Below, one piece after another: positions 40,477 to 56,512 of a stretch of 64,000 nucleotides of DNA (position 1 is the first letter of the stretch; each line of letters opens with the position of its first letter). Position numbers and translations under genes: made by a program. The notes under the pieces are model-generated. The model saw only the letters and a list, made by a program, of their open reading frames with translations. It was not told where the DNA came from and made no database searches. The DNA is from an uncultured bacterium (GTDB lineage: Bacteria; Planctomycetota; UBA1135; GCA-002686595): positions 576,001 to 640,000 of the forward strand of contig CALSNU010000002.1 in the NCBI GenBank assembly GCA_943787795.1. The letters are read 5' to 3'.

Positions 40477-42300
40477 CTAGTCCGCCGCGGATGGAGCCCA
40501 CAAGTCGATCGCCCGCCCCCCAAGCTCGAGGCGCTCTACGAGCCTGAATCGATCGAGCGCATTCGCGTGATCGCGGCCGAACCGGTCCAGAAACGCCGCG
40601 AGCGGCGGCGGGGCCTGACGGGCACCATCGAGATCGTCGGAGAACGCGAGGAACCAGCATGAGAAGAGCTCTTCCTCGGTAAATCGACTCAGGAGAGCGT
40701 CGGTGAACGCCCCGTTATCTGGCGTGACCACGGGCCATGGGGCGAGCGGCGGTCGGCCACCAAGGAGGATCGGCGCCATCTGGACTCGATAGGTCAGGTC
40801 AATGACGATCGGGCGCTCCTCGAGGTCACCAGTGAACGCGTGTCTGCGTACTGCCCGACAGAACCTAGCGGAGTTCGCCGCGAGGAGGAGTCGGTCGGTC
40901 TCGGTGACAGCAACCTCCTCCCTCGCCACGAAGAGACTGCCCTCGATGGCCCAGGGGTAAAGGGCGGTCAGGCTCGAACCCAGGGCGGTCATGATCGCTG
41001 CGGAGGCTATGAGTTGTCGTCGAGCCCAGCGCCCGAGTCCGTCTGGGGAGAGGGTAGAGGCGAGGAATGCTGCGGGGAGCGCCAGCATCATTCCAGGGCT
41101 ACGGAGGCCGCCTTGGAGGCTGAATGCCGAGCCGAATACCAGGGCGAAGGGGGCGGCGGCCAAGGTGATGACCGCCGTACACCTGAGTGCTTCTAGGCGT
41201 AGGTGCCTGAGCGCGGCGAGGCAGAAAACGAGGTGGAGGTTGAAGCCGGTCAGGAGTGAGGCCCACAGTTCGCCCTCTGAGGCTCCTCGACCCAGGAGAA
41301 GTGACGCCGTCACGCTGGCGGTCGCGACAGGCGGCAGCCATCGCATAGCGACCTGGATCAACCGAGGACTCCTCTGCCCTCCACCCCGGAGGTACTCGGA
41401 CGCGGCGTCGGTCGCCAGGTAGACCGTGGCGGGGTAGATCAGGAAGACCGCATTCTTCAGGCAGTAGAAGGAGTACTTGATGTAGTTCTTCAGCAGGAGG
41501 GGGAAGTCGAGGACCGACTGCTCCAATCCGTGCGTGTCGCTTTCCAAGTAAAGCTGTTGCCCGGCGCTCATACTGTGCCAGATGTGGCTGGTGCTGCCTG
41601 TTACCAGCTCGAAGCCAAGGAGGAACACGAGCATCCCTGCTGTCCAACCAGCGGCCACGCGAACCAAGTTGACGATGTGCCGGCCTTTAGGGCTGGCAGC
41701 GACGACCGCCGTTGGTGCGATCAGTGCCAGGGCAAGGGCGGTGGTACCCTTCGAGATTAGGATTGGAATCAGGAACAGGCCCCCGAGGGCGGCGAGGAGA
41801 GGCACTGCCCGGTGGTACGTCTCAGGTCGACCTTCCCCCAGGGTCCGGAGGAGCGTCGCGATGAAGAGGATCGTGCAGACTAGGTTGACGCTGTTGTAGC
41901 TGGGGTCCAAGACGCCGCGATGGAAAGCACCCATGCACGCCAGAGACGTGAGAGGGACTATGGCGCTCCGTCGGAGGCTTGGGCTGGCGATGCGCTGGAT
42001 GGAGGTCCCGAGCACCGCTCCTGCTCCAATGACGGCGATGACATTGAGGTATCGGTTGATCACGATCCCGTGATCGCCGACGGTGGAGTTCCACACTAAC
42101 CCGAAGTGAGTGAAGGTCGCCTCGAGGTCCAACGGGTGGCGAATCTGAATTAGGTACGCGGCCTGATCATGCAGGTCAAGACCGATACGGGCGGAGAGCG
42201 CGAGGATTGACGCGTACAGAGCGAGGCACGCAAGGAGAGTCGCAGTTGGTGCCAGCAACTCCAGCTTCTTCTTCACGGGGGTGTTCATCGGTGGACTCAC
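40477..42300 (-). CDS. Polytopic membrane protein, putative GT-C/GtrC-like glycosyltransferase
   Basis: GLDLHDQAAYL first-loop acidic motif, PSYN, more than 10 TM segments, atypical codon usage. Confidence 0.6.
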   Translation of the reverse strand: MSPPMNTPVKKKLELLAPTATLLACLALYASILALSARIGLDLHDQAAYLIQIRHPLDLEATFTHFGLVWNSTVGDHGIVINRYLNVIAVIGAGAVLGTSIQRIASPSLRRSAIVPLTSLACMGAFHRGVLDPSYNSVNLVCTILFIATLLRTLGEGRPETYHRAVPLLAALGGLFLIPILISKGTTALALALIAPTAVVAASPKGRHIVNLVRVAAGWTAGMLVFLLGFELVTGSTSHIWHSMSAGQQLYLESDTHGLEQSVLDFPLLLKNYIKYSFYCLKNAVFLIYPATVYLATDAASEYLRGGGQRSPRLIQVAMRWLPPVATASVTASLLLGRGASEGELWASLLTGFNLHLVFCLAALRHLRLEALRCTAVITLAAAPFALVFGSAFSLQGGLRSPGMMLALPAAFLASTLSPDGLGRWARRQLIASAAIMTALGSSLTALYPWAIEGSLFVAREEVAVTETDRLLLAANSARFCRAVRRHAFTGDLEERPIVIDLTYRVQMAPILLGGRPPLAPWPVVTPDNGAFTDALLSRFTEEELFSCWFLAFSDDLDGARQAPPPLAAFLDRFGRDHANALDRFRLVERLELGGRAIDLWAPSAAD

Positions 42301-42655: not shown

Positions 42656-43315
42656 TCACTCAGCTTGCCAGCCGAAGAGCCCGCCGTGCTTGGCCGCCCT
42701 GTGGCAGCGGATGCAGCTCTCCATCGCCCCCGCTCCTGTGACACGGCCGGCGGGGTCCACGGTGCCGAAGGCCCAGCCGTCCATCGTGTCGGGGGTGCCC
42801 TCGGGCAGGCGGAGCATGACGAAGAGGCCGCGAGAGGCGCCGGTCCGGTAGGTGAGCCCGTCGCGCTCGGCGAAGGGGATGTAGCCGTGGCTTGCGGCCA
42901 GCTCCCAGCCCGGGGTCGAGTGGGGGGAGGGCGCGTCCTCTCCCGCGTGGAGCACGGGGGTGAAGGCCTCCTTTATGAGCACGGTGAAGAGCGGGAGCTC
43001 CACCTCCTCCTCGGTGCCCAGCTTCATGTAAGGCCCGCCTTGGTTCGAGCGGAGCGCGTAGATCTTTGATCCGTGGCCGTCCTCGGCTTCCACCGTGGAG
43101 TGCAGCGCCCGGGCGGCCGGGGGCATCATGCAGAGGAACGGCGACCAGTTGAGGTGGGGCCCCACCACCGGTAACTCCGGGACCGAGCCCGCCGCGGCGC
43201 GGATCATCGCCTCGATGGCGCCGCTGGCACGCGCGGGCACGACCTCGTGCGCGCTGCACGCGCAGAGGAGGGCGAGCGCCGCGAGGCCGTGCGAGCGGCG
43301 GCGGGCGGGGCGCAC
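42656..43315 (-). CDS. Cytochrome P460-like lipoprotein
   Basis: Lipobox LCAC, TVLIKE, LFVM, GW.FG and C-terminal CIRCH. GTG start lies 1 bp after the upstream TGA. Confidence 0.65.
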   Translation of the reverse strand: MRPARRRSHGLAALALLCACSAHEVVPARASGAIEAMIRAAAGSVPELPVVGPHLNWSPFLCMMPPAARALHSTVEAEDGHGSKIYALRSNQGGPYMKLGTEEEVELPLFTVLIKEAFTPVLHAGEDAPSPHSTPGWELAASHGYIPFAERDGLTYRTGASRGLFVMLRLPEGTPDTMDGWAFGTVDPAGRVTGAGAMESCIRCHRAAKHGGLFGWQAE

Positions 43316-43316
43316 G

Positions 43317-44618
43317 TCAGGCTCGCTCGAAGAACCAGACGGCGGGCGTGCGCTTCGTCGGAGGATCGAACACGTCGATCTTCTGCTGGAGCTCACTGCG
43401 CGCCTTGCGGGTGGCATCGAGGCGATCCTTGAACTCCCCGTAGACGCGATCGAAGGCGGCTTCCCTCTCCTCGTCCGTCCTCGCCTTCTCCTCCTCGGCC
43501 TTGAACTCCTTGTTGAAGGCCTTGGAGACCACATCCTCGGCGGCCGAGGCGGCCTCGTGCTCGACGCGCAGTCGGGCGAGCTCTGCGGTCTGAGCGTCGT
43601 CGAGCGTGGGCGCCTCGGCGCGCCAGCGGGAGTAGCCGCCGACGATCAGGTCCAGGTCCCCGTCCTTGTCCCAGTCCGCGACCTCGGGATAGAGCCCCTC
43701 GACGGGCCCTGTGGGCGACGTGGGGAGCTCCTCGCCGCGGACCTGGAGCAGGGTGCGGGGCGCCGCGAAGCTCGGGGCTCCGCGCGTTCCCTTGTTGATG
43801 AGCAGGTAGACGCCGGCGATGCCGTCGGACCCGCCGAAGGTCCCGTAGACGAGATCCAGGTCGCCGTCGGCGTCCCAGTCCACGAGGCGTGGCGCGGTCA
43901 TCTTGGCCTTGTCCTCGAGGGGGACTCCACCGGCCATCACGCGCACGTTCTTGCCCGTGAAGCGAGGTTCCGACGGGGACCCCTCGTTCATCTGGACGTA
44001 GAGATGGCCCTCCTCATAGCTCCCCTGGATGAGATCCATGTCTCCATCGCCGTCCCAGTCCATGGCGACGGCGGAGATGCCCCGGAGGTTCCTGGGCTTC
44101 CCGTCGGGCATGGAGCGCCCGGTCGTGAGGTGTTGGTGGATGTCGAAGTCGTAGTAGTACGACACGAGCACGGACTCACCGGCGCCATCGAGCAGGCGCT
44201 CAGGCTCCGCGAAGCCCGCCTCGCTCCCCCAGCTCACGTGGGGCGAGCCGTCGAAGGTGGCGGAGAGGTAGTCCAGCTGCCCGTCGGCGTTGAGGTCCAC
44301 GAACTGTGAACCCATGCCGATGCATCACCAGTTGTTGAAGCTCAGCTGCTTCCCGTCGGTGCGCTCCATCGGCTTCTCTGGTCCCATCCCGTCCGCCGTG
44401 CGCCGCGACCAGGTCACGCGCCCGCTCAACCCGCCGAGGACCAGGTCCTGGATCCCGTCCCCGTCCACGTCGAAAGCGGCGGGCGAGGGATACATCTTCT
44501 TGTGGCCCATCTCGGCATCGCCGGCCATGAACTGGACGGGCGCCTTGAAGAGGATGAGTCCGTCGTCGGCATCCCCGGAGGGCGCCAGGGCCGCGAGGGC
44601 CAGGAGGATGTGAGTCAT
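43317..44618 (-). CDS. Secreted FG-GAP/VCBS-repeat protein, predicted selenoprotein (TGA 44325-44327 = Sec98, 433 aa)
   Basis: ORFs 44325..44618 and 43317..44315 are in one frame, joined by TGG-TGA-TGC-ATC-GGC-ATG. Only the first part has a signal peptide. Five D.D.DG..D repeats in total. Confidence 0.75.
44284..44320 (-). promoter_or_regulatory. Candidate bacterial SECIS hairpin
   Basis: UCGGC..GGGUUCAC-AGUUC-GUGGACCU..GCCGA. The apical loop begins after a 19-nt spacer from UGA, with G at loop position 2. Folded by eye. Confidence 0.6.
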
Positions 44619-44874: not shown

Positions 44875-46017
44875 CTAGGAGATCTTCTCGAGCACCCTCA
44901 GCGAGGACTCGATGACCCGGTCCTGGTGTGGCTCCAGCCCGAGCCACATCGGTAGGCGTACGAGGCGGCCTGCGAGCTCCTCGGTCGTGGCGATCTCCCC
45001 CGAGACCCTGCCAACCTCCTGACCCTTCGGAGCGCTGTGGAGCGGGATGTAGTGGAAGACCGTGAGGATGTCCTCTTCACCGCGCATGAGGTCGATGAAC
45101 CGATCCCGCCGTGCCCGGTCGGGCAGCAACAGGTAGTACATGTGGGCATTGTGAGAGCAGTGATCAGGAATGATCGGGCGACGGCACAGCTCCCCCTCTT
45201 CCGCTGCTGCGAAGGCCTCGTGGTACCGGTCCCAGATGGCCTTTCGCCGACGGGTGATCTCGTCGGATTCCTCCAGTTGAGCCCAGAGATACGCGGCGAT
45301 CAGATCGCTGGGCAGATAGGACGAGCCCACGTCCACCCAGGTGTACTTGTCGACCTGACCCCTGAAGAACGCGCGTCGGTTCGTCCCCTTCTCCCGGACG
45401 ATCTCGGCGCGTAGCGCGAGCTCGGGATCTCGGACAAGCAGCGCCCCCCCCTCGCCCGAGATGATGTTCTTGGTCTCGTGGAATGAGAGCGTCCCCAGGT
45501 CTCCCAGGCTCCCGAGTGGCTTCCCTCGATAAGTCGACCCGAAGCCCTGTGCAGCGTCCTCGATCACGGCGATGCCGTGGTCGCTCCCCACCCGCATGAT
45601 CTCGTCCATCTCGCAGCTCACGCCTGCGTAGTGGACAGGGACGATGCACTTGGTCTGAGGGGTGATGGCGGCCTCAACGAGCTCCTCGTTCAGGTTTAGC
45701 GTGTCCGGACGAATGTCAACGAAGACCGGCGTCGCTCCCAGCTTGGCGAACGCGTTGGCCGTTGAGACGAAGGTGTAGCTGGGCAGGATGACCTCATCGC
45801 CCGGGCTGATGTCTACGAGGATCGCCGACATCTCTAGCGCAGCCGTGCAGGAGTGAGTGAGCAGCGATCGGGCGATCCCGAACTGCTGCTCCATGAACGC
45901 CTCGCACTTGCGGCTGAACAGGCCGTCCCCCGCGAGGTGCCCCTGGAGGTGGGCCTCCGAGATGTATTGGAGCTCCTTGCCCGTCATGAATGGGCGATTG
46001 AAGGGGATGGTCTCCAT
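44875..46017 (-). CDS. rffA: dTDP-4-amino-4,6-dideoxygalactose transaminase (DegT family)
   Basis: IPFNRP, LLTHSCTAALEM, PSYTFVSTANAF, SFHETKN, REKGTNR..F.RGQVDKYTW and VFHYIPLH. Confidence 0.92.
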   Translation of the reverse strand: METIPFNRPFMTGKELQYISEAHLQGHLAGDGLFSRKCEAFMEQQFGIARSLLTHSCTAALEMSAILVDISPGDEVILPSYTFVSTANAFAKLGATPVFVDIRPDTLNLNEELVEAAITPQTKCIVPVHYAGVSCEMDEIMRVGSDHGIAVIEDAAQGFGSTYRGKPLGSLGDLGTLSFHETKNIISGEGGALLVRDPELALRAEIVREKGTNRRAFFRGQVDKYTWVDVGSSYLPSDLIAAYLWAQLEESDEITRRRKAIWDRYHEAFAAAEEGELCRRPIIPDHCSHNAHMYYLLLPDRARRDRFIDLMRGEEDILTVFHYIPLHSAPKGQEVGRVSGEIATTEELAGRLVRLPMWLGLEPHQDRVIESSLRVLEKIS

Positions 46018-46104
46018 CGGTTGCTTCTTAGTAGGCAGGCAGAGGTCTGTTTGTGGGGCGGCAGCTTGGGCCATCGGTGGTGCCCATTCTTCAGCCGTTG
46101 ACTC

Positions 46105-47076
46105 TTAGTCGTCAGAGACCATGTAGGTCGGGGCGCCAGAGGAGCGGCCGTGAATTCGACCGATGTACTCGCCGATGACACCGAGCGAGAATAGCTGCGC
46201 TCCGGAGAAGATTGAGATGACCGAGGCGAGGAACGGGAATCCAGGGACGGCGCTGCCATCAAGGAGGACACGGCTGACGACGTAGAGAAGGGTCAGAAGC
46301 CCAACAGCGGAGAGGGCCAGGCCGATGAAGGTGGCGAACTGGAGAGGAAGCGTGGAGAAACCCGTCATCATGTTCATCGCGTGCTTGATCAGCTTCGGCA
46401 CCGTGTAGCCCGAGTTCCCATGGGCTCGCGGCTCATGGCGCGCGATGACGAAATCGAAGGAAGCGGTGCCCCAGGTGAGGAGGACATCGATGTTGACGTT
46501 CGGGCCCTTGAAGTCGCCGAACGCGTCCCGCAGATCTGTTCGGAAGATTCTCCATGCGCTCACCCGTGCCGCAGCCTCGGCGCCCATGCCCGAGGAGAGC
46601 ACCCACTTGGTGATCCGCGATGCGAGCCCACGGGCTAGCCCGTGGGGCTGTGACGCGGGGGCGATGTAGAGGACATCAGTGCTCTTGCCGAATGCCTCGA
46701 GCAGCTCCGGGATCTTCTGTGGAGCGTGCTGGAGGTCATCGTCCATCGTCATGCAGATGGAGCCTTGCGCTGCCCGGATGCCGCAGAGGAGTGCCGCGTG
46801 TTGACCGTAGTTCCGGGCGAGCCGGATGCCGTGGATGTCGTCCTGCTCGCTGGCCAATTGTTGGATGATGGACCACGATCCGTCTGGCCCTCGATCCTCC
46901 ACGAAGACAATCTCAAAGCGCTGCTCTATCGACTCGAATGCGGACTCGATCCGATGCGAGAGCTCGCGGAGGGACGCCTCCGCGTTGTAGACCGGAATCA
47001 CCACGCTCACGAGATCGTTATCAAGAGGATTGGTGTTGGAGGAATTCAAGGTCATCGCCTTCGAGCACCGGTTCAA
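46105..47076 (-). CDS. GT2 polyprenol-phosphate glycosyltransferase (GtrB/ArnC-like)
   Basis: SVVIPVYN, RNYGQHAA, MDDDLQH and two C-terminal TM helices + GEYIGR. Start may be ATG 47055. Confidence 0.9.
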   Translation of the reverse strand: MNRCSKAMTLNSSNTNPLDNDLVSVVIPVYNAEASLRELSHRIESAFESIEQRFEIVFVEDRGPDGSWSIIQQLASEQDDIHGIRLARNYGQHAALLCGIRAAQGSICMTMDDDLQHAPQKIPELLEAFGKSTDVLYIAPASQPHGLARGLASRITKWVLSSGMGAEAAARVSAWRIFRTDLRDAFGDFKGPNVNIDVLLTWGTASFDFVIARHEPRAHGNSGYTVPKLIKHAMNMMTGFSTLPLQFATFIGLALSAVGLLTLLYVVSRVLLDGSAVPGFPFLASVISIFSGAQLFSLGVIGEYIGRIHGRSSGAPTYMVSDD

Positions 47077-56158: not shown

Positions 56159-56233
56159 TGGAGGCGGCACCCGGACTCGAACCGGGGAATAATGGATTTG
56201 CAATCCATCGCCTTACCACTTGGCTATGCCGCC
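56159..56233 (-). tRNA. tRNA-Cys(GCA), CCA encoded
   Basis: Cloverleaf GGCGGCA..TGCCGCC-T-CCA, anticodon loop TTGCAAA, T-loop TTCGAGT. Confidence 0.96.
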
Positions 56234-56427: not shown

Positions 56428-56512
56428 GGGGATGTGGCGGAATTGGTAGACGCATCGGACTTAAAATCCGAAGGCCTTGGCCGTCCGGGTTCGATTCCCG
56501 GCATCCCTACCA
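56428..56512 (+). tRNA. tRNA-Leu(TAA), CCA encoded
   Basis: GGGGATG..CATCCCT-A-CCA, anticodon arm TCGGA-CTTAAAA-TCCGA, long variable arm. Confidence 0.96.

Follow-up and report, generated by a model that had tools for sequence, protein, structure and literature searches.

Does an in-frame TGA that separates two neighbouring open reading frames (ORFs) end one gene ahead of another, or is it read as selenocysteine (Sec) inside a single gene? The question is raised by a locus on the minus strand of the window, a 64,000-nucleotide (nt) stretch of DNA from an uncultured planctomycete. Here, an ORF of 97 amino acids (44325..44618) and one of 332 amino acids (43317..44315) lie in the same frame, and the sequence TGA-TGC-ATC-GGC makes up the entire gap between them, its TGA (44325-44327) being the stop of the shorter ORF. 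Translation of the minus strand bears out this arrangement, which the first-pass annotation had noticed from the letters alone. With the TGA read as Sec, the product is ...SFNNW-U-CIGMGSQFVDLNADG..., a chain of 433 residues that terminates at a second TGA (43317-43319). Sequence comparison indicates that 43320-44618 is very probably one gene encoding a 433-residue selenoprotein, in which the TGA for residue 98 is almost certainly a Sec codon.

Conservation of the TGA and its cysteine counterparts

A six-frame search of 61 related genomes returned a match in 51, and the best 30 rows carry exactly one TGA each. Homologues had been expected to keep the TGA, and they do: TGA-Cys stands at the same alignment column in 39 of 40 fetched homologous loci, down to 27% identity, all 39 reading [W/Y/G]-TGA-Cys. 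The orthologue-like loci (38-100% identity) contain ...NW-TGA-C-I-G-M... in 20/20 cases. Divergent paralogue loci (30-38% identity) have the TGA-Cys frame in 19/20, with the motifs VW-TGA-CTSSTPQFVD, VY-TGA-CIASSPQFVD, NW-TGA-CVGLSPQLAD, and SG-TGA-CIGFDPQFAD; a frame with the TGA-Cys motif was not found in the twentieth, L050. Across the phylum, 401 genomes were drawn evenly and queried with a 121-residue probe spanning the site, which gave matches in 94 genomes and in 67 of 287 genera. Among the 132 matches listed, 120 contain one TGA and 12 contain none. The TGA is invariant in all 57 aligned family segments.

At the protein level, every member of a 38-sequence alignment, at 27-87% identity to the window protein, has U98 and C99 along with the Asp and Gly residues of five DxDxDG motifs. 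P46, D50, and G66 are also invariant, and since these lie upstream of the TGA both halves must be coding. Judged by sequence, the family is almost certainly a large one, found in marine Planctomycetota and split in two by routine annotation. In G052, a 5.1-Mb genome of the same order, G-U-C-[IV]-[GS]-F-G-P-Q-L-V-D or a close variant occurs in 18 of 20 fetched paralogue loci (L080-L099), and 18 of the 20 carry U-C together with the hairpin described below. At least 18 such paralogues would make an unusually large one-family selenoproteome, if all are Sec.

A sequencing or assembly error is excluded as the TGA is conserved across many assemblies. The gene stretch occurs in marine metagenomes of 10 studies, and two contigs from outside the window's assembly bridge the codon with no difference listed there. 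X4 is a 1044-nt DNA contig from a different study (43569-44612), and X15 is a 514-nt contig from a metatranscriptomic library (44090-44603) with two differences, at 44264 and 44277, both outside the hairpin. A contig from X16, the other RNA run, stops 13 nt beyond the codon and is not counted as bridging. The contigs from RNA libraries suggest that the gene may be expressed, although such libraries can hold DNA.

Relatives without a stop are rare. An exhaustive, profile-free search of 1.84 billion representatives gave 8048 matches at E <= 0.001, and six stop-free proteins among the 150 listed span the site. P0130 and P0154 read W-C-C and P0205 reads S-C-C, while P0153 has lost the motif at the site. 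Scanning one genome per species for the pattern [WY]CC[IT]... yielded eight stretches, six of which are relatives. These six all come from Planctomycetaceae or from metagenome-assembled genomes of Planctomycetota, and all read Y-C-C-I-G-S-S-P-Q-F with the codons TGC-TGC or TGC-TGT. This is classical Sec/Cys homology, because the Cys-Cys homologues align Cys with the UGA. In the sequences compared, the putative Sec form is far commoner than the Cys form.

Five genomes with the Cys form were tested for SelA. Matches are strong in G063 (442.5 bits) and G064 (436.7 bits), and partial, at 33-43 bits but above the Pfam cut-off, in G061, G062, and G065 (loci L051, L052, and L056). The weak matches in the latter three suggest that Sec may have been replaced by Cys after loss of the Sec machinery. 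One of these three genomes is a single 7.7-Mb chromosome.

The alignments also bear on a reading in which translation stops at the TGA and the 332-residue ORF is translated alone from the ATG at 44313-44315, the locus being two separate genes or a recently broken pseudogene. Public gene calls do split it in this way. Of 1293 database proteins at E <= 0.001, the best 120 all cover just 76-77% of the read-through product, and the named entries among them are VCBS or FG-GAP repeat proteins of Planctomycetota. Five fetched database proteins all begin at MGSQFVD, that is, at the Met whose ATG lies four codons after the TGA, and the 97-residue front piece is on record separately as P0169. Set against this are the position of the TGA at one column in 57/57 aligned members over deep divergence, the existence of full-length Cys-Cys forms as single ORFs, and an N-terminal piece that contributes the signal peptide as well as the first blade of what is confidently predicted to be one domain. 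Moreover, the Met after the TGA is absent in other subfamilies (CIAS, CTSS, CVGL, CIGF), which therefore have no start there. Two genes or a broken gene are extremely improbable. With one continuous gene, the family would expose a systematic annotation error, as the 120 best database entries cover just the part downstream of the TGA.

The hairpin downstream of the TGA and the Sec machinery

In bacteria, the selenocysteine insertion sequence (SECIS) lies just 3' of the UGA. The hairpin GGGUUCAC-AGUUC-GUGGACCU starts 11 nt after the UGA, within codons M102-L109, and has a minimum free energy (MFE) of -10.5 kcal/mol on 30 nt. Its 8-bp stem pairs 44306-44313 with 44293-44300 around the loop AGUUC (44301-44305), as the first-pass annotation had drawn it just 3' of the TGA. 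The bacterial SECIS (bSECIS) model, as given in the legend of Fig. 2A of PMC13188914, has a loop of 3-9 nt with a G at its first or second base, a stem of 4-16 bp, a UGA-to-loop distance of 16-37 nt, and an MFE <= -7.5 kcal/mol. The window's element falls inside every one of the constraints in that legend, with an 8-bp stem, a 5-nt loop in which a U comes after the G at position 2, 19 nt to that loop, and -10.5 kcal/mol. Across the family, 33 of 39 elements reach -7.5 kcal/mol on a 30-nt window. On sequence, the hairpin fits a bacterial SECIS that would recruit SelB with Sec-tRNA(Sec).

The covariation that had been called for as a test is present. Over 57 sequences the 8-bp helix is 85.4% paired, compared with 24-48% after a shift of the 3' partners by 1-3 columns, and four of the eight pairs show compensatory change. 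These are 19-37 (GC 22, AU 10, GU 3), 20-36 (GC 37, AU 1, GU 2), 23-33 (CG 51, UA 2), and 24-32 (AU 39, GC 5, GU 5). The observed pairing, the number of double-change cells, and the covariation score were each reached by 0/500 shuffles, counts that are not probabilities as the compared sequences are kin. Some paired changes also show in the protein: Gly to Ser goes with Leu to Phe, and CCA to CCG with Val to Ala. Invariant in all 57 segments are TGA-TG, C25, the first four loop bases A26-G27-T28-T29, G31, and G34-A35; in the Cys99 codon the first two bases, TG, never vary and the third is C in at least 90%.

Codon usage carries the same imprint when compared with the same family genes outside the six hairpin codons. 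At the sixth codon past Sec, Pro is written CCA in 24 of 27 cases against a background of 5%, and Ser is written TCA in 12 of 12 against 3%; TCA had been singled out as atypical from the window alone. The Val codon three further on is GTG in 36/36 (background 36%) and the intervening Gln codon is CAG in 39/39 (background 81%). The hairpin structure overrides codon preference and forces rare codons. In the six Cys-Cys genes the corresponding codons are CCG/CCC, CAA, and AGC; none has the full hairpin, L054 retains a 4-bp remnant, and the mean MFE over the same 30 nt is -4.9 kcal/mol (n=6) versus -9.6 kcal/mol for the Sec genes (n=39). The family may serve as a natural experiment on SECIS evolution, with a hairpin written into the codons for (S/P)-Q-F-V-D that forces rare codons and decays in Cys forms.

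A lower stem, UCGGC/GCCGA (44316-44320 with 44284-44288), had been proposed as well. It exists in the window sequence, is 68% paired in 39 relatives and broken in divergent subfamilies, and was dropped as not conserved. Rfam returned no SECIS or other credible family in 44150-44450.

The genes selA, selB, selC, and selD, on which the first-pass annotation had made its proposal depend, are all present in the window's genome (4.7 Mb, 8 contigs, 85% complete) by profile matches and ARAGORN. SelA scores 400.9 bits, SelD 327 bits, and the C-terminal wing domain of SelB 58.9 bits. The tRNA-Sec scores 69 bits against a gathering score of 47 and is called by ARAGORN as tRNA-SeC with the anticodon tca. 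The selD gene adjoins selA (L057, G000:C5:184757-188701) and carries its own in-frame TGA, ...ACAG-U-AAKMPMG..., with hairpins downstream, at a position that we take to be the known Sec/Cys site of SelD. SelA is present in 59 of 61 related genomes. The whole order therefore appears to use Sec, and for the same reason SelA presence has no discriminating power among the relatives. The window itself contains tRNA-Cys (gca) at 56159-56233 (-) and tRNA-Leu (taa) at 56428-56512 (+), the second of which is the weak, sub-threshold match of the tRNA-Sec model.

Alternatively, a near-cognate Trp or Cys tRNA could decode the UGA, or the genetic code could be reassigned. The relative P0241, with Trp at the aligned position, would agree with this. 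Such decoding sits poorly with a gene that itself terminates in TGA, which implies that this organism treats TGA as a normal stop wherever no SECIS comes after it, and with a selD gene that uses TGA at the presumed Sec site. In addition, the genome has the complete Sec machinery, Cys forms lack or have only a remnant of a hairpin that otherwise agrees with the SECIS model, and relatives without the TGA mostly have Cys in its place, the pattern of known Sec/Cys pairs. Decoding of this type is very improbable.

Some observations weigh against Sec at this site. The 81-nt fold of the window taken alone has a z of -1.29, with 23 of 200 shuffles folding equally well or better, so the weight of the hairpin comes from the relatives, because the single-sequence fold is not beyond chance. 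On the 30-nt window, six of the 39 hairpins of the family do not reach -7.5 kcal/mol. Some full-length relatives read W-H-C (P0137), W-W-S (P0241), or W-N-R-S at the site, and the fold can evidently exist without the U-C pair. Finally, the compared family sequences share ancestry and counts across them overstate their independence.

Fold and possible function of the protein

The read-through protein matches the Pfam families FG-GAP_3 (PF13517; E 1.3e-19, 70.9 bits, cut-off 26.9) and FG-GAP (PF01839; 22.2 bits, cut-off 22.1), and contains five DxDxDG calcium-type motifs. An AlphaFold2 model built on the 38-sequence alignment covers both halves with a mean predicted local distance difference test (pLDDT) score of 92.3 and a predicted template modelling (pTM) score of 0.87. 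It consists of beta-strands over residues 24-333, two helices (341-378 and 382-417), and a last strand (421-430). In a structure search by a method other than Foldseek, five-bladed propellers rank first with whole-model matches at Z 14-18. The top match is 4pvi of glycoside hydrolase (GH) family GH62 (Z 18.4, root-mean-square deviation 3.8, 274 residues aligned, 9% identity), followed by GH43, GH32, and GH68. The model thus points to FG-GAP blades arranged in a five-bladed propeller, a reading that agrees with the five DxDxDG motifs and the best structure matches, and the resemblance to these glycosidases is probably one of geometry only.

Foldseek recovered integrin alpha heads, CRTAC1 (9etn), and TcB/YenB propellers at E 4e-7 to 1e-5, with TM-scores of just 0.29-0.36. 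An integrin-like seven-bladed architecture was not found, given five motifs, five-bladed best matches, and a TM of 0.3-0.36 to integrin heads. Pfam matches at E <= 0.1 include neither UnbV_ASPIC (PF07593), the C-terminus being a helical hairpin, nor any family of pyrroloquinoline quinone (PQQ) propeller repeats. The latter were of note since PQQ quinoprotein dehydrogenases combine a propeller with vicinal Cys-Cys. NCBIfam gave 0 families for the read-through protein, so no selenoprotein model matched, and an ESM Atlas search with the natural Cys form P0130 gave generic FG-GAP/VCBS clusters only.

U98 and C99 lie in an 11-residue loop, N-N-W-U-C-I-G-M-G-S-Q, before the strand 105-107 and the D108-x-N-x-D112-G loop. 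From the secondary-structure string of the model, this loop would lead into the first strand of blade 2. By comparison with integrin structures it would presumably face the side opposite the calcium loops.

The expectation of an exported 433-residue repeat protein with calcium-type motifs agrees with the Pfam matches, the model, and the invariance of U-C in the alignment. The signal peptide assigned to the upstream part fares less evenly. Orthologues in other genera have canonical signal peptides, whereas the window protein's own N-terminal hydrophobic stretch is short and has no positive n-region. Residues 1-18 are of low confidence in the model, as is usual for a signal peptide, with pLDDT below 50 at residues 1-3 and 9-18. 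The orthologue signal peptides have no twin arginines, so the protein would be exported unfolded, and a cofactor loaded in the cytoplasm is therefore unlikely.

As some relatives are fused to DsbD_N, it is proposed that U98-C99 forms a redox centre outside the cytoplasm. Three of seven extended proteins scanned (P0154, P0182, and a locus of G018) join a family member to DsbD_N (PF11412), the domain through which DsbD passes on electrons in the periplasm, at 35.5-41.6 bits against a cut-off of 25; P0154 is itself a Cys-Cys form. The G018 locus (L063 5042-8251 (-), G018:C433) is a single frame with two TGA codons, possibly a two-Sec fusion of ~970 residues, with a hairpin after both TGAs. Its order is signal peptide, propeller 1 (T-T-U-C-I-S-F-C-P-Q-F-V-D), helices, DsbD_N, and propeller 2 (N-W-U-C-I-G-M), and its DsbD_N keeps two Cys in a ...C-x4-C... 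stretch (...QVCDDQVC...). Fusions of this type support a selenol/thiol centre that would be kept reduced in an oxidising compartment. In the proposed mechanism, the centre would cycle between selenenylsulfide and selenol/thiol, be kept reduced by a DsbD-type electron relay, and reduce a substrate. Drawn from sequence features, this scheme is possible, if somewhat short of likely.

Three findings count against the redox scheme. DsbD_N is absent from the window's own protein in Pfam, no gene neighbour recurs in 20 diverse loci (137 ORFs scanned of 183 called), and, with the calcium-type motifs set aside, the 38-sequence alignment has just U98, C99, Q105, and W248 as invariant side chains, with Q105 also constrained by the RNA loop. 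The same 20 loci contain no dsbD-like neighbour. A sulfatase is adjacent in three of them.

These features can also be accommodated by a true selenoprotein in which U-C serves as a ligand for a soft metal or metalloid (e.g. Cu, Hg, Cd, As), or as a structural lock on a lectin- or adhesin-like binder. Propellers of the FG-GAP/VCBS type mostly serve as scaffolds for binding, the structure matches include integrins, CRTAC1, and TcB-type propellers, and no other invariant catalytic residue is seen. The 18 or more paralogues in one genome suggest diversified binding specificities, the sulfatase next door in 3/20 loci is in keeping with a binder, and several selenoprotein families with vicinal CU/UC bear metal or organometal names in the list of PMC13188914. 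Conversely, the DsbD_N fusions point to electron transfer, and the retention phylum-wide of costly Sec where Cys would be cheaper is, as a matter of general knowledge, usually tied to catalysis. A ligand or structural role is less likely than not, yet a serious rival. Taken as a whole, the reading of the family as phylum-wide, paralogue-rich exported selenoenzymes, built on a five-bladed FG-GAP propeller with a DsbD-fed Sec-Cys centre and constituting the first extracytoplasmic beta-propeller selenoprotein, is a tentative one.

Relation to known systems and features of the locus

Selenoproteins are rare and mostly cytoplasmic, nearly all with redox roles. The gene resembles bacterial in-ORF SECIS genes, best studied in the formate dehydrogenases of E. 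coli, with an in-frame UGA, a stem-loop just downstream inside the coding sequence (CDS), a loop starting G-U, 19 nt from UGA to loop, selA/selB/selC/selD in the genome, and Cys homologues. It differs from them in protein family and fold, and in an element without an Rfam match. With FG-GAP/VCBS propellers (integrin alpha head, CRTAC1 9etn, TcB/YenB) the protein shares the Pfam repeats and DxDxDG motifs; unlike them, it has the putative Sec-Cys pair, a helical hairpin insert, and an overall geometry predicted to be five-bladed. To our knowledge, the known members of the FG-GAP/VCBS family contain no Sec.

High-molecular-weight thioredoxin reductase has a vicinal Cys-Sec in a GCUG tail, where an eight-membered selenenylsulfide ring is possible. 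The likeness is the adjacency of Sec and Cys alone. In the window protein the order is U-C, at residues 98-99 of 433 in an internal propeller loop of a presumably exported protein, and Pfam found no flavin/pyridine-nucleotide disulfide oxidoreductase domain in it. As for periplasmic relays of the DsbD/ScsB type, DsbD_N is found in the fused relatives and not in the window protein, and a partnership is suggested by those fusions.

Among the papers listed by full-text searches pairing selenoprotein or selenocysteine with FG-GAP, VCBS, or ASPIC, none describes the family. The main text of a 2026 review catalogue of prokaryotic selenoprotein families (PMC13188914) does not mention FG-GAP, VCBS, propeller, or Planctomycetes. 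These terms are likewise absent from the main text of BSepDB (PMC13326102), whose supplementary family tables may bear on novelty and whose supplement includes Planctomycetes in its genome list, and from the main text and supplements of deep-Sep (PMC12013277). The closest entry found in print is Table S9 of PMC4807772 (2016), which has four unnamed FG-GAP candidates from Planctomycetes, each split by annotation into two genes at a TGA; bSECISearch predicted a SECIS for three of the four, and the nearest hit in the non-redundant (nr) database has Gly at the aligned site. The candidates were named after that nearest hit, with no motif, family, or function given. Compared by description alone, they may be the same family named after a distant hit; the window protein has no UnbV_ASPIC domain.

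If the Sec reading is true, an exported propeller fold with calcium-type motifs joins the known selenoproteins, and the number of Sec genes rises in many Planctomycetota, with at least 18 in one genome. On the tentative wider reading as phylum-wide exported selenoenzymes, current catalogues would greatly underestimate how much marine Planctomycetota use selenium. The family would also offer a testable entry to selenium-dependent periplasmic chemistry in abundant marine bacteria. The features of the gene are collected in Table 1.

Table 1. Positions of the predicted gene and its parts in the window, with the basis of each assignment
Feature	Position	Strand	Basis
Complete CDS, 433 codons including one putative Sec codon; predicted exported five-bladed FG-GAP/VCBS propeller	43320..44618	-	Single frame; Pfam; AlphaFold2 model over both halves
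UGA almost certainly read as Sec, U98	44325..44327	-	TGA in 57/57 aligned members; Cys in rare homologues; same in contigs of independent runs
Cys99 codon TGC, partner of the putative Sec in the U-C dipeptide	44322..44324	-	C99 invariant in 38/38 sequences
Putative SECIS-type hairpin	44293..44313	-	Fold; covariation; codon bias; loss or reduction in Cys forms; bSECIS constraints
Predicted N-terminal export signal, about residues 1-18, weak in the window's genus	44565..44618	-	Hydrophobic MTHILLALAALA; low pLDDT; clear signal peptides in orthologues
Predicted long helical hairpin, residues 341-417, then last beta-strand, 421-430	43368..43598	-	DSSP on the model: helices 341-378, 382-417
True stop codon, TGA	43317..43319	-	End of the read-through frame

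The gene just downstream (42656-43312 (-)) has a lipoprotein-like signal (...ALALLCACS...) and a C-terminal CIRCH haem-binding motif (CxxCH), with a weak match to Cytochrome_P460 (E 0.0026, 18.6 bits) below the cut-off. It was considered as a conserved partner and rejected, recurring only in five loci of the same genus. Further out, the flanks (44875-47076 (-) and 40477-42300 (-)) encode a DegT/DnrJ aminotransferase (E 3e-87), a family-2 glycosyltransferase (E 7e-28), and a 607-residue ORF without a Pfam family. The aminotransferase and glycosyltransferase suggest a glycan-synthesis cluster unrelated to the selenoprotein gene.

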